26,903 bases of DNA from a virus. Its lineage: Duplodnaviria; Heunggongvirae; Uroviricota; Caudoviricetes. The stretch covers positions 1 through 26,903 of the IMG/VR virus record IMGVR_UViG_2917413769_000006. One strand, 5' to 3'. Of this stretch, positions 4,790 to 15,323 are shown piece by piece. Position 1 is the stretch's first letter. Every line of letters begins with the position of its first letter. Under the pieces are notes generated by a model, which saw nothing but the letters and a program-made list of their open reading frames with translations, was not told the DNA's origin and did not search any database. The translations under genes and the position numbers were made by a program.

Positions 4790-5194
4790 ATGGTGGGTGA
4801 ACCTGTATCTGCCGTCACCGCTACGACGTTAACCCTGACCAGCGTTACTTTTGCGAGCCTTTTCGCTGATACTCCTGCGGGGGTTTATGTCGGGGCGTTT
4901 GCAGGTGCGGTTGTTTATGTTCTGTCATCGCAGGAATTGAGCAGGTTTGCGCAGGTCGGTTATTTCGTAGCGTCGTTTCTTATCGGCATACTTGGTGCCG
5001 ATTTTACGACAGCAATCCTGAATGGAATGCTCGGCAAGCATTTTCCTGATGGAGTAACGATCGGTAACTGGCTTGGCGCTACTGTAGCGGCAGCGGTTGG
5101 TGTCTGCATTCTGATTTCGTTGCGGAAAATCGACCCCAAAACAATCCTGAGCCGTCTGATATCCGGGGGGAGTGGGGATGGTAACGTTAAATGA
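4790..5194 (+). CDS. putative holin / lysis membrane protein
   Basis: 134-aa ORF with RBS AGGGGG; several strongly hydrophobic segments; first gene after Q and terminators, directly upstream of endolysin. Confidence 0.45.
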   Translation: MVGEPVSAVTATTLTLTSVTFASLFADTPAGVYVGAFAGAVVYVLSSQELSRFAQVGYFVASFLIGILGADFTTAILNGMLGKHFPDGVTIGNWLGATVAAAVGVCILISLRKIDPKTILSRLISGGSGDGNVK

Positions 5195-5474
5195 ATTTCT
5201 CCTGATCGTTAATGCTCTCGCTTGCGCAGTCAGCGCAACAACCCTCGGTACATTCCAGCGCAAAGGGGCGAAACACAAACGTATTGGCGCGTTTCTGGCG
5301 TTAGTGCTGATCATCGCCTGTGGCTCAGTAACTATCCAAATTCTTACCGGGGAATATACCGTAGCAAATCCATCGGAAACGGTGATCAACGTAATGCTGA
5401 CCATATTTATCGTTTCTGCAAAAGGGAATGTGATGCGGGTTTTTAACCGGAATGTAGTCAGTTCGGATAAATAG
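5178..5474 (+). CDS. putative holin / antiholin (small membrane protein)
   Basis: About 98 aa from ATG 5178 (GTG 5172 also possible), three hydrophobic segments, overlaps the preceding ORF and precedes the endolysin. Confidence 0.45.
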   Translation: MVTLNEFLLIVNALACAVSATTLGTFQRKGAKHKRIGAFLALVLIIACGSVTIQILTGEYTVANPSETVINVMLTIFIVSAKGNVMRVFNRNVVSSDK

Positions 5475-5487
5475 CTAAGGTAATTCA

Positions 5488-6099
5488 ATGAATAAATCAC
5501 AGTTTCAGAAGGCGGCTAATATCAGCGCCGAGTTAGCTGCGCGTTGGTTTCAGCCAATTGATGCGGCGATGGCTGAATTTGGCATAACTTCTGCCGATGA
5601 TCAGGCGATGTTTATCGCTCAGGTGGGGCATGAATCTGGAGGTTTCACACGAATTGTGGAAAACCTGAATTATTCTGCTGATGGCTTAAAAGCAACTTTC
5701 GGAAAGTATTTCCCCGGCGACACCGCTCAACAATACGGCCGCACTGCTGATCATCCGGCGGATCAAAAATCAATTGCAAATATTGTTTACGCCCACCGGA
5801 TGGGGAATATTGCAGAAAGCGATGGCTGGAATTATCGCGGTCGCGGCCTGATTCAGATTACCGGGCACGACAATTACCGGGATTGCGGCGCTGGCCTGGG
5901 TGCCGATTTGCTACTGGTTCCGCAGTTGCTGGAGCAGGACGAATATGCGGCTCGTTCGGCAGCGTGGTTCTTTGCCTCGAAAGGCTGCCTGAAACGCAGT
6001 GGCGATATTACGGCAGTAACAAAAATCATCAATGGTGGCACCAATGGCCTTGATGATCGTAAAGCTCGCTACGAAAAAGCGAAATCGGTACTGGTATGA
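5488..6099 (+). CDS. endolysin, glycoside hydrolase family 19 (chitinase-like lysozyme)
   Basis: 203 aa; motifs FIAQVGHESGGF, NYRGRGLIQITG, KIINGGTNGLDDR typical of GH19-type phage lysozymes; position in lysis cassette. Confidence 0.85.
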   Translation: MNKSQFQKAANISAELAARWFQPIDAAMAEFGITSADDQAMFIAQVGHESGGFTRIVENLNYSADGLKATFGKYFPGDTAQQYGRTADHPADQKSIANIVYAHRMGNIAESDGWNYRGRGLIQITGHDNYRDCGAGLGADLLLVPQLLEQDEYAARSAAWFFASKGCLKRSGDITAVTKIINGGTNGLDDRKARYEKAKSVLV

Positions 6100-6635
6100 G
6101 TGCACTGCTTGCCATAGCCGAGAAATACTGGAAGCCACTGGTGATCACGTTGCTGGTGGCTTTTTCGTTATGGCGTGTATTCAACGCGGGATATGAATCG
6201 GCTGATTCTGCCTGGAAGCAACAATGGCTACAGCGAGATCTGGCTGACTCAACCGCAACCTTACATAGAGAGGTTGCCGAGCGAACCGAAGAACGGCGGC
6301 GTCAGCAGGCGGCAGACGAGGAACGAAAACGTGCAGATGAGGAACTGGCAAAAGTACAGGCTGATGCTGACGCTGCTCAGCGGGCTGGTGATGGGTTGCA
6401 GCAACAACTCGCCACGCTACGCAGGCAACTCGCAGGAAGTGAAACCGGCCGCATTTCCGCAATTGCAGCAGCAGGCGCGGCAAAAGCCGAGACCACAAGA
6501 GTGCTTGCCGAGCTGCTTGGCGAATCTGACAAAAGAGCGGGCATCTATGCAAAAGAGGCTGATGAACGCTATGCAGCAGGATCAAGCTGCGAACGAACCT
6601 ACGACAAAGTGACAGGAACAAATAATGGAAATTAA
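6096..6635 (+). CDS. i-spanin (Rz-like)
   Basis: ATGA overlap with endolysin; N-terminal transmembrane helix (WKPLVITLLVAFSLW) followed by charged coiled-coil-like region; contains an embedded ORF in another frame. Confidence 0.75.
   Translation: MSALLAIAEKYWKPLVITLLVAFSLWRVFNAGYESADSAWKQQWLQRDLADSTATLHREVAERTEERRRQQAADEERKRADEELAKVQADADAAQRAGDGLQQQLATLRRQLAGSETGRISAIAAAGAAKAETTRVLAELLGESDKRAGIYAKEADERYAAGSSCERTYDKVTGTNNGN
6337..6612 (+). CDS. o-spanin (Rz1-like outer-membrane lipoprotein), embedded in the i-spanin gene
   Basis: Alternate-frame ORF wholly inside the Rz-like gene; MRNWQKYRLMLTLLSGLVMGC has signal peptide plus lipobox Cys; Pro/Gln-rich mature part with a further Cys (QECLPSC). 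Confidence 0.65.
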   Translation: MRNWQKYRLMLTLLSGLVMGCSNNSPRYAGNSQEVKPAAFPQLQQQARQKPRPQECLPSCLANLTKERASMQKRLMNAMQQDQAANEPTTK

Positions 6636-8262: not shown

Positions 8263-9523
8263 ACACGTTATTAAGTTTTTGCCATTTCACGACGGGCAGA
8301 AAAAGATTTATCGATCTCCAGCAAAGAGAAAAGTAATCCGTGCTGGTCGCCGTTATGGCAAAACGACAATGCTTGAGCAGGCCGGGGGAAACTGGGCGGC
8401 ACGACAAATGCGAGTCGGTTGGTTTGCCCCGTCATATAAAATTCTTCTTCCGTCGTTCAAAGCGATTCGGGAACTGTTGAAGCCGATCACAACCAGTTCA
8501 AGTAAGACCGATTCGATTATTGAGACCATTGGCGGCGGTCAGGTCGAATTCTGGACTCTGGATAACCCCGACGCTGGGCGATCCCGTAAATATCACAAAG
8601 TCATCATTGATGAGGGAAGCCTGGTCAAAAAAGGCATGCGTGATATCTGGGAACAGGCAATCGAGCCGACACTGCTGGATTTCGACGGTGATGCTGTAAT
8701 GGCCGGTACGCCTAAGGGTGTGGATGATGAGAATTTTTTCTATCAGGCCTGCAATGATAAATCGATGGGGTGGGAGGAGCACCACGCGCCAACAGCTGCG
8801 AACCCAACGATTAACCCCGCAGCACTGGCGAGGATTATTGACGGTCGCCCGCCGATGGTTGTGCAGCAGGAATATAACGCAGAGTTTGTGGACTGGCGCG
8901 GACAGAACTTTTTCAAACTCGATTGGCTGCTGGAGAATGGCGAAGCTGTCGATTATCCGTTTGCCTGCGATACCGTTTATGGCGTTGTTGACTGTGCGCA
9001 GAAGGGGCAGTTACAGAACGACGGATCTGCGTGCATCTGGTTTGCGCTAAATTCGCTGCCGACGCCTCACCTGGTCATTCTCGATTGGGACATTATCCAG
9101 ATTGACGGTTATTTCCTGAAAGATGTGGTGCCGCAGTGGATAAACAAGGCCAAACAGCTTAGCGAAATCTGCCGGGCACGCATGGGCACCACCGGGCTGT
9201 TTATTGAGGATAAGGCCACCGGCATTACGCTGCTGCAACAAGGCGCTAATGAAGGCTGGAACGTTCACCCCATCGATAGCGAGTTAACGGCGCTGCCGAA
9301 AGAATCTCGCGCCATCAATATTTCTGGATATGTGGCGTCCGGGAAAGTTCGCATTTCTAAATACGCCTTTGACAAAATCGTTGAGTACAAGCAGTCGAAG
9401 AAAAATCATCTTCTGACACAGGTGCTCAAGTTCATCATCGGTGAAGAAGACCAGGACGACGATCTGTTTGATTGCTTTAACTACGGCGTCGCGCTGGGTC
9501 TGGGTAACGGAGAGGGGTTCTGA
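8252..9523 (+). CDS. terminase large subunit
   Basis: 423 aa; Walker A-like GRRYGKTT near N-terminus, acidic motif VIIDEG; overlaps terS stop. Confidence 0.85.
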   Translation: MTTEHVIKFLPFHDGQKKIYRSPAKRKVIRAGRRYGKTTMLEQAGGNWAARQMRVGWFAPSYKILLPSFKAIRELLKPITTSSSKTDSIIETIGGGQVEFWTLDNPDAGRSRKYHKVIIDEGSLVKKGMRDIWEQAIEPTLLDFDGDAVMAGTPKGVDDENFFYQACNDKSMGWEEHHAPTAANPTINPAALARIIDGRPPMVVQQEYNAEFVDWRGQNFFKLDWLLENGEAVDYPFACDTVYGVVDCAQKGQLQNDGSACIWFALNSLPTPHLVILDWDIIQIDGYFLKDVVPQWINKAKQLSEICRARMGTTGLFIEDKATGITLLQQGANEGWNVHPIDSELTALPKESRAINISGYVASGKVRISKYAFDKIVEYKQSKKNHLLTQVLKFIIGEEDQDDDLFDCFNYGVALGLGNGEGF

Positions 9524-10959
9524 TGCAGGACGACGATATTTGCATGGGTAGTAATGCTGGCGTCCTCAGTAAGATTCTGGAGGGCGACAGCATTGAACCC
9601 GGTGCGCAGGCGGGGTATGAGCTCTGCAAGCTGATTTACCTGTTTCACCCGCTGGGCGGAAAGATGGTCGACCGACCGATAAAACTGGCGATGTCGGAAC
9701 CACGAACCGTACATGTAACGCGCGGGCCTGAGAAGCGGTTGCGTGAGGCGTTCGAACGGGAATGGAAAGCGATTAAAGCCGATCGCATTATTGCGAATAC
9801 TGCACGCCAGTCCCGTATTTATGGTGTTGGCGCAGTCGTGATGCTCATTGAAGGCGAGCCCACGAACGAGGCCGCAGGGTTCGATACGCTTTACAGAAAA
9901 TCCATCACCTTTAACGTGCTGGATCCGCTGAACACTGCCGGTTCTGTAGTGCTCAATCAGGATCCTAACTCTGCTGATTTCCAGAAAGTGGGAAGCGTTA
10001 CCGCGGCAGGCAAGCCTTATCACCATAGCCGTTGCTGCGTGATGATGAACGAGGATCCGATCTATCTGGCCTACACGCCATCGTCTTTCGGGTTTGCCGG
10101 GCGCAGCGTTTACCAGCGTGCACTTTATCCACTGAAATCATTCATTCAGTCGATGCGCGCTGATGACATGGTGACGATTAAAGCCGGGCTGCTGGTGGCG
10201 TTCATCAAACAGGCCAGCTCCATCGTCAATAACATGATGCAGAAAATGTCCGGGATTAAACGCTGGATGTTGAAACGCGGTGGTAACGGTGACGTGTTGC
10301 AGGTAGGAGAGAATGACAAGATTGAATCTCTCGACATGCAGAACCTCGAAAAGCCGCTGGATACTGCCCGTAACCACATTCTGGCGAATATCGCGACGGC
10401 GGCAGATATGCCCGCGATTCTGCTCAACAGTGAGACGTTTACGCGCGGGTTTGGTGAAGGAACAGAGGATGCAAAAGCGGTCGCCCAGTATATCGACGAT
10501 GTACGTAAAGATTTGCAGCCGCTTTATGATTTTTTCGTGCGCATCGTTCAGTACCGGGCGTGGTCACCTGAATTTTTCGACGCTCTGAAAAACGATTTGC
10601 CCGAGTACAAGAGTCTCAGTTGGGAGGCGGCTTTCAGTTCCTGGGTGAACAATTTTGAATATGTCTGGCCTTCGTCTCTGAAAGAGCCGGAAAGTGAAAA
10701 AGTCAAAGTCGATGAAACGCGCTTTAAGGCGATCACTGAGATGTTGACTGTGCTGCTTCCGCAACTCACCAAAGACCCGGAAAACAGGGCGACGCTTATT
10801 AAGTGGGCCTGTGAGAATGCCAACATGAACGAAAACCTGTTTGCCGATCGGCTTGAGCTGGATTATGAGCTGCTGGAGAAATTCCCTCCGGATCCACCTT
10901 CAACAAGCAATGATAGGGAGGATGGTGATAATGGCCTCATTCGTGAAAGAGCTGCGTGA
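9523..10959 (+). CDS. portal protein
   Basis: 478-aa ORF immediately after terL (ATGA overlap); size and position; no motif independently confirmed. Confidence 0.7.
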   Translation: MQDDDICMGSNAGVLSKILEGDSIEPGAQAGYELCKLIYLFHPLGGKMVDRPIKLAMSEPRTVHVTRGPEKRLREAFEREWKAIKADRIIANTARQSRIYGVGAVVMLIEGEPTNEAAGFDTLYRKSITFNVLDPLNTAGSVVLNQDPNSADFQKVGSVTAAGKPYHHSRCCVMMNEDPIYLAYTPSSFGFAGRSVYQRALYPLKSFIQSMRADDMVTIKAGLLVAFIKQASSIVNNMMQKMSGIKRWMLKRGGNGDVLQVGENDKIESLDMQNLEKPLDTARNHILANIATAADMPAILLNSETFTRGFGEGTEDAKAVAQYIDDVRKDLQPLYDFFVRIVQYRAWSPEFFDALKNDLPEYKSLSWEAAFSSWVNNFEYVWPSSLKEPESEKVKVDETRFKAITEMLTVLLPQLTKDPENRATLIKWACENANMNENLFADRLELDYELLEKFPPDPPSTSNDREDGDNGLIRERAA

Positions 10960-11806
10960 AGCCATTAAACATTTTCTGGAGTACGGTTACAGCAGCGAAG
11001 AAAGCCTCATTATGTGGACTGAGCGCCTGCGTAATGCCACTGAAAATAAGGTCGATGGCAATGACTTGTATCGATATACCAGTCGCCGGTTAACTGCTGC
11101 TTATGATTTGGAAATTGGCCGGGGAAAAGCGCTGAAACGCCACATAGGGGTGAGCCGCTTCACGCTGAATTATCTTGAGCCAAAACTGCGCGCCGAGCTG
11201 GACCGCCGGATCATGGCATCCGCTGGCCTGATAAAACTCAACCGTTCGCAGGCTATCGACAAAACAATTCAACGTTTCAGCGGGTGGGCAACCAGTATCC
11301 CACCGATAAGTGAAATCAGCGTTGGCCTGTCGGCTTCTTCCCGAACGAGTGCAATTGCCACTAGTCAGCACATCGCAAAGTCAGCTCGCCAGATTGATTT
11401 CGAGCAGCGCCGGGTGATGGTGGATCAGACACATAAGCTGATTGCCAATATCGATAACATCATTGCGACCGATGGCGGGGCGATTGCGGCGGTGTGGCAC
11501 AGCCACTGGCGCCAGCCAAATTATGATTTCCGTGAGCCTCATAAGGAGCGTGATTTACTGGTGTACGCCATTCGTGGCAACTGGGCGATGAAAAAGGGTT
11601 TCATGAAGGTCGGTCCGGCGGGCTATCTGGATGAAATCACCCAGCCCGGCGAAGAGGTGTTCTGCCGTTGCTATCTCACCTATATCTACAACGTCCGAAG
11701 CCTTCCTGATGAGATGAAAACCGAAAAATGGCGAAAGTTCATCGAGGGAAACAAATCTGTCGGTCGTCGTTCTGCAAACTTTGAGGCCATAAAAAACGGA
11801 GGATAA
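10931..11806 (+). CDS. head morphogenesis protein (Mu F-like / minor head protein)
   Basis: About 291 aa from ATG 10931 with RBS GGGAGGA (ORF open from 10841); position after portal. Confidence 0.55.
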   Translation: MASFVKELREAIKHFLEYGYSSEESLIMWTERLRNATENKVDGNDLYRYTSRRLTAAYDLEIGRGKALKRHIGVSRFTLNYLEPKLRAELDRRIMASAGLIKLNRSQAIDKTIQRFSGWATSIPPISEISVGLSASSRTSAIATSQHIAKSARQIDFEQRRVMVDQTHKLIANIDNIIATDGGAIAAVWHSHWRQPNYDFREPHKERDLLVYAIRGNWAMKKGFMKVGPAGYLDEITQPGEEVFCRCYLTYIYNVRSLPDEMKTEKWRKFIEGNKSVGRRSANFEAIKNGG

Positions 11807-13381
11807 GTGAAAACCTACGCTGCCGGGATCCTGTTCAAGTCTGGCGGGAAAATATTTCTGGTAAAGCGTGGGGATGATGGTTCATGGGCGGTACCGGGTG
11901 GGAAACTCGAAGAGGGCGAAACGCCGGAAGCCGCAGCAAGGCGTGAAGTGATGGAAGAATGCGGGTTTGATTATTCCAGCCCCCTGACGCCGCATACCCT
12001 GATTGATGGCTATGTTACCTATCTTGCTGATGATGTTGAGCAGTTCGACGCGGTTCTGAATGAGGAGAATCAAGCTTATGGCTGGTTTTCTCCTGCTGAA
12101 CTGCCCGATCCGCTACATCCCGGCATGGTGGCGATGCTTGATGCCGAACCACTAAATGAAATGGACGTTGCCGGGCTTATCGCTCACGGGCAACTCACAT
12201 CCCCGCAATTTTTCAGAAATATGTACCTGTGGGCGCTGCGTATCACCGGAACGGGTGTTACCTGGCGATCCAGATTCAGGCAATACGCCTACCGATCCCC
12301 TGAAAACTATCTGACGGATGAATTCCTCGCCCGGTGCTCTGGGCTGCCGGTTATCTGGTGGCACCCGGAGAAAAACACGCTCAGCAGCGAGGAATTCGCC
12401 TCAAGGACGATCGGGACCATCGCGTTTGCCTGGATAAAGGGTGATGAGGTGTGGGGAATGGCCCGCATCTATGACACCGACGCCGCTGCGAATCTTTCAA
12501 CGCGGCAACTGAGCACATCCCCCACGGTGGTGGGCGGCGATGACGTTCTGATCAACGTCGACGGTGAACCGCTGCTGCTGGAAGGAACTCCGGAATTGTT
12601 AGATCACCTTGCGATTTGTGAACAGGGCGTCTGGGACAAGCTGGGAGAACCGACGGGAGTTAAATCCGACACACTTGTAAACGAGGTCCAGAAAATGGAT
12701 GAAGAAAAATTATTAGCACTCATTAACCAGGCGCTGGACGCTCGCGAAGCCCGCGCAAAGGCTGACGCCGAGGAAAAAGCGAAAGCAGATGCAGAGGCCG
12801 CAGAAAAGGCTAAAGCCGATGAAGACGCCGCCCGCATTAAGGAAGAGGAAGAAAAAGCGAAGGCTGACGCCGAGGCAAAAGCGAAAGCTGATGCGGAGGC
12901 AGAAGAAAAGGCCAAAGCGGACGCCGAGCTGGAGAAAATCCGCGCAGACATGGAAGAAATGAAAAGCCGTGTGCCGCAGGAACTCAGCGACGAAGAGCGC
13001 AATGAGATCGCTGATACCCAGTGCAAAGCTGACAGCGTATTTGCCTCTTTCGGCGAACGCGCGCCGCAACCTATGGCGGGTGAACGTGCGCTGCCCTACC
13101 GCCGCCGCATCATGACCCGCCTGCAGAAATATTCTCCTGATTATAAAGAAGTGGATCTGCATGCCATCGCAGACAGCCAGCTCCTGAGCATCGCGGAGAA
13201 AAAAATCTATGCCGATGCGCAGGCATCAGCGGCATCCAGCCTGGAACCCGGCGCTGGGCTGCGTGAAGTCATTCGCACCGATGCCACCGGGCGCCGTATC
13301 AGCACCTTTATCGGCGATCCGTCAGCAACATGGGCGCCTTTCCAGGCTGTCAGCCGTAAAGTCGCTGGCATCAAACAGTAA
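11807..13381 (+). CDS. Nudix hydrolase domain fused to head scaffold/protease-like protein
   Basis: GTG start 5 nt after RBS ACGGAGGA. Residues about 1-110 form a Nudix fold with a complete Nudix box [24 protein letters not shown] (G-x5-E-x7-REUxEExGU). Remainder: globular middle domain, imperfect KADAEA-type coiled-coil repeats (about 12747-12930), basic C-terminus; occupies the protease/scaffold slot between the F-like gene and capsid genes. Confidence 0.75.
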
Positions 13382-13401: not shown

Positions 13402-14274
13402 ATGTCGAGCGTTTTGACAGTAAATCCAATGCAGACCACTAACGCCCGCGGTACTTTTTACGTCAAGTCTGATGGTCTTATTCAGGGTGTGGCGCTGGAC
13501 GATCCGGCGGCGCGTTATGCGCTGGCATCCGGTACTGTTGCCAGCGATGAAGTTAAACCAATGTGGGGCGGTCTGGCTGTAAATGAACTGGTTCCCGGCG
13601 CTTCGTCTGCTCCGCGTAGCAGTATCATCAAGCGGGCAGGCACACTTACTCAGCTGGTGGGATTCACAGTTTTCAATCAGGCACATAACGGCCTGACCAC
13701 TCCGCAATCACCGGTACCGCTTTACCTCAGCAATATGAGCGTTTCTTTTTATCGCCTGGGTTCGGGGATGCGTGTTCCGGTTAAAGCTTCCGATGCTGTT
13801 ATCTCACTGGCCAGCGCGGGGATCTCCGTTAATCAGCCGCTGGTGTGGAATTTTGCTGAGGATTGTCTGGATGTATTCAGCACTGCGGCGGCTGATGTGG
13901 CTACAACAGCTATCACATGGACCGCACCCACCGCGAATGCGGCTGGATATGCAACAGCGACGACCGACAGCGCTCATGGACTGAAAGTGGGCGCATATGT
14001 CGCGATTTCTGGTGCGGCTCCGGTTACTTACAACGGTACCGTTCAGGTGCTCAGCGTGCCGTCGGCGACAACTTTCACCTTTACGCCGGTTTCAGTGCCT
14101 GCAGGCAATGCGACCACTCAGGGTACCGTAGGTGCGGTAACAGTGCAGGATGTCGCCCTTCCGGTAAAAATCATCGAAATGCAGATGGGTAACAGCAAAA
14201 CCGTTTCTTACGATGCGGCGACGGGCTTTGCTACCTGGAACGACAGCGGAAACGCTGCGGTAATTCTGCTGTAA
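13402..14274 (+). CDS. putative head structural protein (decoration-like, Ig-like beta-rich)
   Basis: 290 aa, Thr/Ala/Val-rich beta-type composition (TFTFTPVSVPAGNATTQG); located immediately before the putative major capsid gene. Confidence 0.4.
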   Translation: MSSVLTVNPMQTTNARGTFYVKSDGLIQGVALDDPAARYALASGTVASDEVKPMWGGLAVNELVPGASSAPRSSIIKRAGTLTQLVGFTVFNQAHNGLTTPQSPVPLYLSNMSVSFYRLGSGMRVPVKASDAVISLASAGISVNQPLVWNFAEDCLDVFSTAAADVATTAITWTAPTANAAGYATATTDSAHGLKVGAYVAISGAAPVTYNGTVQVLSVPSATTFTFTPVSVPAGNATTQGTVGAVTVQDVALPVKIIEMQMGNSKTVSYDAATGFATWNDSGNAAVILL

Positions 14275-14291: not shown

Positions 14292-15323
14292 ATGCCAGCT
14301 ATTACACCCGCTTATCAAATTGTAAACCCGTCGTACATCATGCCGGAAATGATCCTGTCGTATCAGCAGGCGTCCGGCGCATTTTCTGTCATGGCCAGCG
14401 GTAACCCGCTGGTTCGCCTGTCAGACGGCGACCAGTACGTTTATATGAAACGCCTGGATATTCGCACTCAGGTAACCTCCAGCCAGTCAGGGAATGCCAA
14501 CCAGTTACCCTCTGTTGCACTGGATGCGCGAATGGTCAGCACGCCAACGTATATGTTCCGCGCGCGCGCCATTTACGATCATCACGATATGGCTGCAGCA
14601 GGGAACTGGGGGATTGCACTCCCTGAAGCCCAGCGACTTGGTACCCGACAGGCTATTTTCCAGCAAATGCGTAACGCGCTGCTCTATGGCATGAACCCGG
14701 CTGGTGGTGAGGGCGTTCTGAATACCAACGGCGCAACCACTATCAGCCTGCCGGCAGACAGCGGCGGGAACACTACCGTACTTACTTACGATCATGGCGA
14801 AATGGCAGTGTTTCTGCTGGCGCAGATTCAGGCGATCCGTACCCGTACCATGCAAATGGGGCGGGCGTCACGCATGGTTATCCTCGGTCCTCAGCGCACG
14901 CTGGGTACGATGGAAATGCAGCAGATCGTTCAGTTGACCAGCTACCAGCGTCCGGGCGGTGGTACTTCAACGGTGAAAGGTACCGTCAACGGTGTCTCAG
15001 ATGAGGCAGATTGCGAAATTGAATGGGGCTATGACGATACGCTGATTGGCGCCGGGGCTAATGGTACGGATGCGATCATCATCGCCATGCCGGAAGTTGA
15101 GCGCCCTGAGGTTAACGCGAAAATTAACACCAACGAATTCGCCAAACTTAGCCCTTCACTGGAAGCCACATCACTGATGTTGTGCGACATGGCGGCACCG
15201 CGTGAAATTCCAACGCCGATCGCGGGCGGGGCCATTGATGTGCTGTCCGAACTGCGATCCACCTCTGGCTGGGTGCTTCGCCCTGAGGCGCTGACCATCA
15301 TTTCGATGAAATACAGCGATTAA
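14292..15323 (+). CDS. putative major capsid protein
   Basis: 343 aa with strong RBS; last large head-module gene; followed directly by an intrinsic terminator. Assignment by position and size only. Confidence 0.5.
   Translation: MPAITPAYQIVNPSYIMPEMILSYQQASGAFSVMASGNPLVRLSDGDQYVYMKRLDIRTQVTSSQSGNANQLPSVALDARMVSTPTYMFRARAIYDHHDMAAAGNWGIALPEAQRLGTRQAIFQQMRNALLYGMNPAGGEGVLNTNGATTISLPADSGGNTTVLTYDHGEMAVFLLAQIQAIRTRTMQMGRASRMVILGPQRTLGTMEMQQIVQLTSYQRPGGGTSTVKGTVNGVSDEADCEIEWGYDDTLIGAGANGTDAIIIAMPEVERPEVNAKINTNEFAKLSPSLEATSLMLCDMAAPREIPTPIAGGAIDVLSELRSTSGWVLRPEALTIISMKYSD

Follow-up and report, generated by a model that had tools for sequence, protein, structure and literature searches.

The stretch of DNA analysed here, referred to as the window, comprises 26,903 nucleotides (positions 1 to 26,903 of IMG/VR virus record IMGVR_UViG_2917413769_000006, Caudoviricetes) and carries, within a temperate myovirus prophage, a single gene that joins a Nudix hydrolase domain to a prohead protease and a scaffold. 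Going upstream from this gene one meets a MuF-like head morphogenesis gene and then those for the portal and TerL, and going downstream a 290-aa gene without known function followed by the major capsid protein gene. The slot between a Mu F-like gene and the capsid genes, to which an earlier reading of the sequence alone (the sequence-only reading) had assigned the fusion, is thus borne out by profile matches on both sides:

10841 to 11806, plus strand: MuF/SPP1 gp7-like head morphogenesis gene, directly upstream (phrog_324, E=5e-38); its real start probably lies downstream of 10841
11807 to 13381, plus strand: complete Nudix-prohead protease-scaffold polyprotein gene, 524 aa, GTG start
14292 to 15323, plus strand: major capsid protein (PF09950)

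The GTG start at 11807 abuts the stop codon of the MuF-like gene, to which the fusion gene is translationally coupled. The nearest proteins come from Citrobacter freundii (93% identity), and NCBI-annotated homologs at this identity have an identical N-terminal start sequence; megablast against a phage collection and E. coli genomes returned no near-identical DNA. A GTG in place of an ATG, a second start probably present inside the gene at Met297, and the existence of chimeric relatives such as P0075 could all be taken as signs that the fusion is an artefact of annotation or assembly, consisting of two genes or having its real start past the Nudix box. This reading is effectively refuted: the frame is single and uninterrupted by stops, a strong Shine-Dalgarno sequence (GGAGGAtaaGTG) precedes the GTG at 11807, and no plausible start codon was found between the Nudix box and the protease domain in ORF 11807-13381. 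Moreover, PHROG 6216 matches the protein end to end (residues 3-524, E=4e-255), and more than 2000 homologs from many genera and isolated phages have the N-terminus in common, hence the gene is a conserved one and neither a chance ORF nor a mis-joined frame. The start upstream of the Nudix box, on which the sequence-only reading depended, is conserved in homologs.

The N-terminal part contains the following features:

11807 to 12142, plus strand: Nudix hydrolase domain, minimal and MutT-like, residues 1 to about 112 (PF00293)
11900 to 11968, plus strand: Nudix box G32 to F54 with catalytic R46-E47 and E50-E51, read from the sequence

A Nudix box with both catalytic glutamates had been recognized by eye, and the profile search agrees with it significantly, PF00293 matching residues 5-110 with E=8.4e-18 and scoring 65.1 bits (cut-off 21.1). 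The box, G32-x5-E38-x7-R46-E47-V-x-E50-E51-x-G53-F54, is canonical and fits GX5EX7REUXEEXGU at all positions. The best profile matches in PDB are E. coli NudG (2rrk), MutT (4v14), RenU and 3ees (E ~1e-10), the last of which we take to be Bdellovibrio RppH (BdRppH) and whose resemblance is limited to the Nudix core; together with NudI, these are the nearest PDB/NCBIfam relatives. The domain has in common with MutT, NudG, NudI and RppH its organization as a single Nudix domain of ~110 aa with a canonical box, but it differs from them by the motifs LNDEH..WF and LPxPLH, which mark a clade found only in Nudix domains of phage head modules. Matches in the jumbo phages 121Q, PBECO4 and vB_Ec-M-J were not considered further, as these are plain Nudix genes that stand by themselves.

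As to the substrate, the domain falls below the NCBIfam equivalog cut-offs for MutT (41 bits against 148), the NudG type (28.7 against 156), NudI (28.8 against 95) and the RppH models (25-28 against 116-259). The models for ADPRase and the NudC NAD diphosphatase barely register, with E=0.004-0.008 and 15-17 bits over residues 24-55 only, and the roles in ADP-ribose or NAD-cap hydrolysis that had been suggested for the domain are ranked low; the sequence does not favour them, the nearest families being of MutT, NudG, NudI and RppH type. Judged by its sequence, the domain looks more like MutT or RppH than like enzymes of ADP-ribose or NAD. From this weak, sub-threshold similarity, in which every equivalog score lies far under its cut-off, we infer that the most likely substrate is either the 5'-triphosphate end of an RNA or a compound resembling a nucleoside triphosphate.

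The rest of the chain was described from an alignment-based AF2 model that covers residues 116-524, the junction between Nudix and protease lying outside the model; a single-sequence AlphaFold model (pLDDT 44) was unusable. The middle part is organized as follows:

12152 to 12676, plus strand: prohead serine protease domain with the assemblin/T4 gp21/HK97 fold, DUF2213/PF09979 lineage, residues ~116-290
12362 to 12364, plus strand: His186, candidate catalytic histidine, motif VIWWHPE (121/121, alignment A1)
12512 to 12520, plus strand: Ser236-Thr237-Ser238, candidate catalytic serine, motif LSTSPT (121/121 each)
12602 to 12607, plus strand: Asp266-His267, candidate third active-site member, motif LLDHLAIC (120/121)

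The domain has the assemblin/T4 gp21/HK97 fold, and in the sequence alignment H186, S236/S238 and H267 follow the His...Ser...His order of proteases of this fold. The protease call rests on the fold and the conserved residues, since sequence searches yielded no protease match: a family-profile search of PDB returned Nudix proteins only, and hhalign of the protease sub-alignment was not significant against single sequences of either T4 gp21 (active site His85/Ser140) or BcepB1A gp26. PF09979 scores 19.2 bits on the window protein against a threshold of 22, and 24-29 bits on homologs that are 50-60% identical in this domain; many close homologs carry PF09979 in precomputed Pfam. The predicted activity is cleavage of scaffold or capsid protein during head maturation. 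The protein had been described as scaffold-like with a globular domain, of which the scaffold part holds, but the globular domain is the prohead protease itself. A conserved L-x-E motif at the boundary between Nudix and protease is not claimed as a T4-like cleavage site, because the motif falls within a helix modelled with confidence and also occurs at the extreme N-terminus of proteins that have no Nudix domain.

Downstream of the protease lie the scaffold and a putative internal start:

12683 to 12697, plus strand: internal Shine-Dalgarno GAGG (12683-12686) and in-frame ATG of Met297 (12695-12697)
12701 to 12964, plus strand: long acidic, alanine-rich helix forming the scaffold coiled-coil, residues 299-386 (AF2 secondary structure, TRF)
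12989 to 13378, plus strand: C-terminal helical and small beta domain, residues 395-524 (pLDDT ~90-98)

The KADAEA-type repeats noticed earlier are real, being encoded by tandem arrays of 24-30 bp (12764-12831 and 12853-12912 by TRF) and modelled as one long helix, and the length of this coiled-coil differs between near-identical homologs. The C-terminal domain is conserved at Q405, D409, G416, G425, E426, Y431, R434 and other columns and is probably the end of the scaffold that binds the capsid. Both an elongated helical body and a position between portal/MuF and capsid gene, two features of scaffolds, are found in this protein. The GAGG stands 8 nt upstream of the ATG of Met297, a position within the variable linker that is occupied by M in 99/121 and by V in 13/121 aligned sequences. 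The same internal Shine-Dalgarno and ATG are present in PdC23 and Yersinia phages, and the internal Shine-Dalgarno is missing from some distant homologs. Met297 thus probably starts a nested, scaffold-only product of 228 aa. In phage lambda, C and Nu3 supply few protease-bearing chains among many scaffold chains.

Whether the Nudix domain is a fixed part of such proteins was surveyed in the best 150 of 816 protease-domain cluster representatives. Within this set, the protease N-terminus carries a Nudix domain in 83 representatives (~55%), lacks any extension in 60 (~40%) and in a single one bears a PBECR1 RNase in place of Nudix, in an unchanged gene order. Of the representatives, 76 have the strict Nudix box, and none of the 83 that bear the domain lacks the RE..EE core, so that the catalytic residues are indeed kept in orthologs; as the protease domains of these representatives share only 38-89% identity with one another (median 56%), such invariance indicates selection on catalysis. 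On the tree of the protease, lineages with and without Nudix are intermingled and at least 40 changes are counted; phages such as Rac-SA53 and vB_Apl-pPE4 naturally do without Nudix. No free Nudix gene was found upstream in a Nudix-less locus. P0075 was rejected as an example of alternative cargo, being a deletion chimera of the terminase small subunit and the C-terminal part of the fusion protein. The best reading of the survey is that the protease N-terminus serves as an optional cargo slot, which would be filled by Nudix, by nothing or occasionally by another effector.

The Nudix clade marked by LNDEH..WF and LPxPLH is moreover not confined to one carrier. It is fused ahead of the protease in two DUF2213 lineages that differ strongly, one of them that of BcepB1A, it forms the C-terminus of portals in the Bcep781 group (Bcep781 gp17), and in Bm1 and PQ43W it is a gene of its own next to MuF or the protease.

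These distributions bear on the possibility that Nudix serves the protease as a regulator or pro-domain, whose binding of a nucleotide or pyrophosphate compound would keep the protease inactive until assembly or DNA packaging, and does not act as an effector on an external substrate. Prohead proteases must stay silent before assembly, and Nudix stands directly N-terminal of the protease, joined by a short conserved linker (LPxPLHPG...LNE). We nevertheless hold this explanation to be very unlikely, given that 40% of the close relatives, as well as some natural phages, dispense with the domain, that an unrelated RNase can take its place, and that portals and free-standing genes harbour Nudix as well. 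Furthermore, catalytic glutamates conserved without exception speak for turnover and not for mere binding.

Several known systems help in interpreting the fusion. One of the closest in design is Burkholderia phage BcepB1A, in which gp26 combines a Nudix domain (residues ~48-156) with a DUF2213 protease and scaffold, and likewise lies between a MuF-like gene and the gene for the capsid. Its scaffold is also made from an internal start, the annotated in-frame nested gp25 measuring 226 aa against the 228 aa predicted in the window protein. However, protease and scaffold are very divergent, BLAST matching only the Nudix domain (40%), and gp26 has an extra leader of ~47 aa; its record is labelled "head maturation protease, COG3566", with the Nudix domain unnamed in the annotation. 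Another is gp24 of Pseudomonas phage Pa193, after which PF09979 is presently named (Pa193_gp24), a DUF2213 protease-scaffold family member whose gene immediately precedes those for decoration and capsid proteins. This protein was found in virions by LC-MS and lies inside the mature capsid, where its residues 286-326 bind the capsid interior as a helix-turn-helix (PDB 9B40; PMC11456595), and this bound segment is downstream of the protease domain. Unlike the window protein, it was published as a putative scaffold only, with no mention of Nudix (PMC11456595), and the two are distant, the window protein reaching 19 bits with PF09979, under the cut-off.

T4 offers a model of the proposed process, in which the prohead core takes up enzymes that are then trimmed by the protease and enter the host along with the DNA, as is known of Alt, an enzyme carried in the head and injected with DNA (PMC5512222). 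The T4 cargo proteins are polypeptides of their own, addressed by a short targeting peptide, and the scaffold likewise has its own gene, whereas in the window protein the cargo is covalently within the protease-scaffold chain; no sequence similarity to T4 gp21 is detectable. A further parallel is given by PBECR RNases, 2H, InPase and ARTs fused to MuF or portal proteins, which have been predicted to be packaged and injected (Iyer et al., 2017, PMC5512222). PBECR1 occupies the identical slot in a relative of the window protein, and Bcep781 gp17 is a portal-Nudix fusion; the differences are that in the window protein a prohead protease-scaffold does the carrying and that it holds one small cargo and not many domains. 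As in those effector fusions, an effector domain is attached to a head-internal assembly protein and is interchangeable (Nudix, PBECR1 or none).

The sequence-only reading was not aware of a described fusion, but the architecture already exists as PHROG 6216 and NUDIX+DUF2213 has been noted (PMC8770471). It occurs in the sequenced phages PdC23, Chronis, RothC/D, vB_YenM and BcepB1A (gp26), and prophages that have it number in the thousands. Iyer, Burroughs, Anand, de Souza and Aravind mention NUDIX once, among the neighbours of InPase, and no protease-Nudix fusion (Iyer et al., 2017, PMC5512222). The design is hence widespread, with neither a functional study of it nor proteomic data for a Nudix-bearing member found in the literature searched; an injected Nudix pyrophosphatase was likewise absent as an effector class from the phage literature searched.

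With moderate confidence, we propose that Nudix is an optional enzymatic cargo, brought into the procapsid by a three-part Nudix-protease-scaffold polyprotein. Full-length chains would be few and the scaffold-only chains from Met297 many, as with lambda C/Nu3 and BcepB1A gp26/gp25. The scaffold end would co-assemble with the capsid protein, and in that case the protease and its N-terminal fusion partner would end up within the procapsid. An uptake of Nudix into the procapsid had been suggested before; the suggestion, still an inferred one, is strengthened by the nature of the carrier (protease plus scaffold), by the location of Pa193 gp24 inside the capsid and by the replacement of Nudix with PBECR1. 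Nudix would thus enter the head on the protease-scaffold as an active enzyme; digestion of the scaffold by the protease would most likely free it, and the freed enzyme could become available at or just after delivery of the genome to the next cell. A Nudix domain fused to a portal would stay with the particle unless cleaved, so that ejection is not implied for every carrier, and the standalone versions show that the domain need not be covalently joined to a head protein.

The same standalone members of the clade in head modules (Bm1, PQ43W), in which no covalent link is required, also suit a different account, according to which Nudix acts late in infection in the cytoplasm of the producer cell and its fusion to the late, abundant protease-scaffold provides co-expression and dosage only. 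The genes are always under late, structural operon control. Prohead proteases, including those of HK97 and T4, commonly digest themselves and their scaffold, and the folded Nudix of ~13 kDa may fail to survive maturation, through degradation or simple loss. Cleaning of the nucleotide pool, or removal of a nucleotide alarm or defence molecule during head filling, are examples of roles that would suit such a producer-cell enzyme, and any Nudix that entered the head would be destroyed at maturation without a role in the next host. We consider this account rather unlikely. Nudix has been attached repeatedly and independently to ends that face the capsid inside (protease N-terminus, portal C-terminus), and co-expression alone is hard to accept as the reason, because an adjacent gene would suffice; in addition, a PBECR1 RNase in this slot would be toxic in the cytoplasm of the producer.

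Cargo delivery by the protease may be taken one step further, in a version that we put forward tentatively as a possibility. Here the N-terminus of the DUF2213 protease would be a general dock for head-carried enzymes, and Nudix a pre-packaged takeover or counter-defence enzyme that acts at DNA entry, ahead of all phage gene expression. One possible action is removal of the 5' pyrophosphate from host RNAs, leading to their decay, in parallel to the PBECR RNase. Another is the destruction of an immune molecule that resembles an NTP, for instance a nucleotide that terminates chains or serves as a signal.

If Nudix does travel in the head, temperate phages of a very common kind would deliver an active nucleotide or RNA pyrophosphatase along with their DNA. 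Their hosts include Enterobacterales and Burkholderia among others, their diverged lineages run to hundreds and their prophages to thousands. The prohead protease would then join MuF, portal and targeting-peptide routes as a carrier of cargo, and inspecting the domains fused ahead of the protease would become a rule for finding packaged effectors. The system lends itself to experiment, offering isolated phages with and without Nudix, obvious catalytic glutamates and a domain that is naturally dispensable for assembly. On a more modest reading, PHROG 6216 and database entries named "NUDIX domain-containing protein" or "TolA" can be reassigned as head maturation protease/scaffold proteins.

The gene that the sequence-only reading had described as a Nudix hydrolase fused to a head scaffold is real, lying exactly at 11807-13381 on the + strand and encoding 524 aa. 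Its GTG start codon directly follows the upstream gene's stop and is preceded by a strong ribosome-binding site (GGAGGAtaaGTG), and the protein shares its first 10 residues with NCBI-annotated homologs that are 93% identical. The claimed Nudix box was borne out, residues 32-54 (nt 11900-11968) fitting GX5EX7REUXEEXGU at every position, and the Pfam NUDIX profile covers residues 5-110 (E=8.4e-18; score 65 bits, threshold 21). PHROG 6216 ("unknown function") spans residues 3-524 (E=4e-255), and it is effectively excluded that the fusion is an annotation artefact.

The part following the Nudix domain had been taken as scaffold-like, which holds for the coiled-coil scaffold, but its globular domain (residues about 116-290) is itself very probably the prohead protease. 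A search with residues 116-300 against 1.8 billion cluster representatives gave 816 clusters, the best 150 being about 50-60% identical in the protease domain, and an alignment of 121 of these 150 representatives was the basis of an AlphaFold model of residues 116-524 (mean pLDDT 88.5). With this model, Foldseek against the PDB ranked proteins of the assemblin/T4 gp21/HK97 fold first, and 98 predicted viral structures matched at E<=0.001, most of them named DUF2213, prohead serine protease, capsid maturation protease or HK97 proheadase. The window protein scores just below the Pfam threshold for DUF2213 (PF09979) and its homologs above it; 986 phage records contain the canonical domain, frequently under the label head maturation protease. 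Profile alignment of the protease domain with the T4 gp21 sequence gave no significant match. Throughout the 121 aligned sequences His186, Ser236, Thr237, Ser238 and Glu259 are invariant, and Asp266 and His267 occur in 120. Given that His186...Ser236/Ser238...His267 follows the His...Ser...His order of the prohead protease class, we infer His186, Ser236/238 and Asp266-His267 as the candidate active site. An architecture of Nudix, prohead protease and scaffold is very probable.

The protease is followed by a variable linker, a long acidic helix (residues 299-386) encoded by 24-30 bp tandem repeats (12764-12912), and a conserved C-terminal domain (residues 395-524) that was modelled with confidence. 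Homologs at 89-94% identity vary in length at these repeats (490, 498, 506 or 524 aa), which suggests that repeat slippage alters scaffold length. Within the variable linker, 99 of the 121 aligned sequences have Met and 13 have Val in the column of Met297, and in the window a GAGG (12683-12686) stands 8 nt ahead of the in-frame ATG (12695-12697) of this residue. The same SD/ATG arrangement is present in PdC23 and one Yersinia phage, and the SD is weaker or absent in some distant homologs. On balance these features favour a second, scaffold-only product of 228 aa starting at Met297. The same nested layout is annotated in BcepB1A, where gp26 is a "head maturation protease, COG3566" and gp25 a 226-aa "scaffold protein" with an internal in-frame start just past the protease domain. 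Such nested protease/scaffold expression is the arrangement of lambda C/Nu3.

A word-indexed search with the window protein returned >2000 proteins, named "NUDIX domain-containing protein" in their source records and mostly borne on prophages, chiefly of Citrobacter, Serratia, Salmonella, Klebsiella, Enterobacter, Cronobacter and E. coli. The full fusion is also carried by isolated phages, namely Pantoea PdC23, Klebsiella vB_Kpn_Chronis, RothC and RothD, several Yersinia vB_YenM phages and Shewanella vB_Sb_QDWS.

N-terminal states among the best 150 of the 816 protease clusters
No N-terminal extension: 60
Any N-terminal extension: 90
Nudix with strict box: 76
Nudix by Pfam, REx2EE core intact, last glycine or spacer alone altered: 7
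PBECR1 RNase extension: 1
Unrecognised N-terminal domain of 85-300 aa: 6

Nudix accounts for about 55% of these 150. A check for loss of the catalytic residues, suggested in the sequence-only reading, was passed, since every Nudix examined retains them. Judged from these sequences, the fusion is frequent and subject to selection.

In a neighbour-joining tree built from the protease domain the states are thoroughly intermixed, and 49 of 121 sequences have a nearest neighbour of another state. The tree requires at least 40 changes, a rough count because of its shortness and poor resolution. Nudix-less versions occur naturally in Escherichia phage Rac-SA53 and Actinobacillus phage vB_Apl-pPE4, and in one Nudix-less metagenomic locus no free Nudix gene lies upstream. 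The protease N-terminus would accordingly be read as an optional cargo slot; that Nudix is instead a regulatory pro-domain of the protease seems very improbable. The PBECR1-bearing relative keeps the same order of small terminase, TerL, portal, MuF-like gene, protease gene and capsid genes, and PBECR domains fused to MuF or portal are predicted to be virion-packaged and injected (Iyer et al., PMC5512222). Among other homologs, the 1567-aa called protein P0179 has ribonucleotide-reductase-like domains ahead of Nudix and protease, and P0127 has DUF5710 ahead of Nudix; these additions and the six unrecognised domains may be further cargo types. P0075 (518 aa), in which a terminase small-subunit N-terminus is joined to residues ~211-end at 98% identity, was set aside as a deletion chimera of a decayed prophage or an assembly artefact. 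The Nudix-less Rac-SA53 homolog (4995-6287) is annotated "TolA protein" with the note "nudix", and the Yersinia homologs "glycosyl transferase"; for these, as for PHROG 6216, head maturation protease/scaffold would be a better label.

Nudix domains from four further settings share 40-48% identity with that of the window, and in an alignment AAGxxF, LNDEHxxxxWF and LPxPLH(P/R) are common motifs outside the box.

Settings of related Nudix domains
C-terminal end of portal: Bcep781, Bcep1, Bcep43, BcepNY3
N-terminus of gp26: BcepB1A
Free gene between MuF-like gene and protease: Burkholderia phage Bm1
Free gene in structural module: Ralstonia phage PQ43W

Protease N-terminus and portal C-terminus both face the capsid interior, and independent attachment of Nudix to these two head proteins is the strongest argument that head location is what is selected. 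PF09979 is currently named "Pa193_gp24" in Pfam, and in a cryo-EM study of Pseudomonas phage Pa193 LC-MS identified gp24 as a component of mature virions, where residues 286-326 of gp24 form a helix-turn-helix pentamer on the inner capsid face at the five-fold vertices (PMC11456595). That study mentions no Nudix in gp24, and therefore supports a head location for the carrier but not for the cargo. We consider it probable that Nudix enters the procapsid together with the protease. Its release by the protease and persistence in the virion would be a nearly even matter, and activity in the next host is a more tentative step. Alternatively, Nudix might work in the cytoplasm during the late phase, the fusion serving co-expression only, which we regard as unlikely.

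As for substrate, the window Nudix is of the minimal, single-domain type, and by single sequence and family profile its nearest solved proteins are E. coli NudG (a CTP pyrophosphohydrolase), MutT, NudI, RenU and 3ees, which we take to be the Bdellovibrio RNA pyrophosphohydrolase, with Dcp2 slightly more distant. NCBIfam equivalog scores are all far under cut-offs. Because the nearest relatives are NudG/MutT-type and the ADP-ribose pyrophosphatase and NudC models match the box only (E about 0.004-0.008), an NTP-like or RNA 5'-triphosphate substrate is ranked above the NAD/ADP-ribose roles first suggested. The fact that an RNase (PBECR1) can replace Nudix leans slightly toward an RNA-directed role.

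The sequence-only reading was not aware of any described fusion of this kind. The architecture is already catalogued as PHROG 6216, in GenBank records and as BcepB1A gp26/gp25, and the Pfam NUDIX+DUF2213 architecture receives passing mention (PMC8770471); a literature search, covering older papers incompletely, found no paper interpreting or testing it. A working likeness is proposed with T4, whose Alt and internal proteins are loaded into the prohead and then injected, and with MuF- and portal-fused effectors, for which loading and injection are predicted. In contrast to these, the carrier here is the protease-scaffold itself, the cargo is Nudix and the system is very frequent; it is widespread and readily testable.

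The fusion gene lies in the late operon of a prophage that is temperate and contractile-tailed, and the gene order around it agrees with the slot proposed, after the MuF-like gene and before the capsid genes.

Genes around 11807-13381, in order
NinB, Q-like antiterminator, holin, endolysin, spanin: before the terminase genes
Small terminase, large terminase, portal (9523-10959): after the lysis genes
MuF-like head-morphogenesis gene: ends at 11806, directly ahead of the fusion gene
13402-14274: 290-aa gene, function not assigned (phrog_6268)
14292-15323: major capsid protein
Tail sheath, tape measure, baseplate: downstream of the capsid gene

With its mechanical start at TTG 10841, the ORF of the MuF-like gene shares 119 nt (10841-10959) with the portal gene; since its PHROG match begins only at residue 30, the true start is probably an ATG near 10922-10931. 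The 290-aa protein sits where Pa193 has the decoration protein gp25, and its last ~80 residues resemble repeat domains of virion/tail-fibre proteins; a role in capsid decoration or cementing is likely, and the label "endosialidase" of its PdC23 homolog is probably wrong. The interval 335-1987 resembles an insertion at the left border of the prophage's early/late junction: two overlapping frames (335-685 and 682-1569; phrog_157, E=2e-76) encode an IS-type transposase, which adjoins a truncated DNA invertase gene (minus strand, 1628-1987). The tape-measure-like 606-aa protein at 20219-22036 matches lytic transglycosylase/endolysin-type families (phrog_873, phrog_7182) in its C-terminal part.
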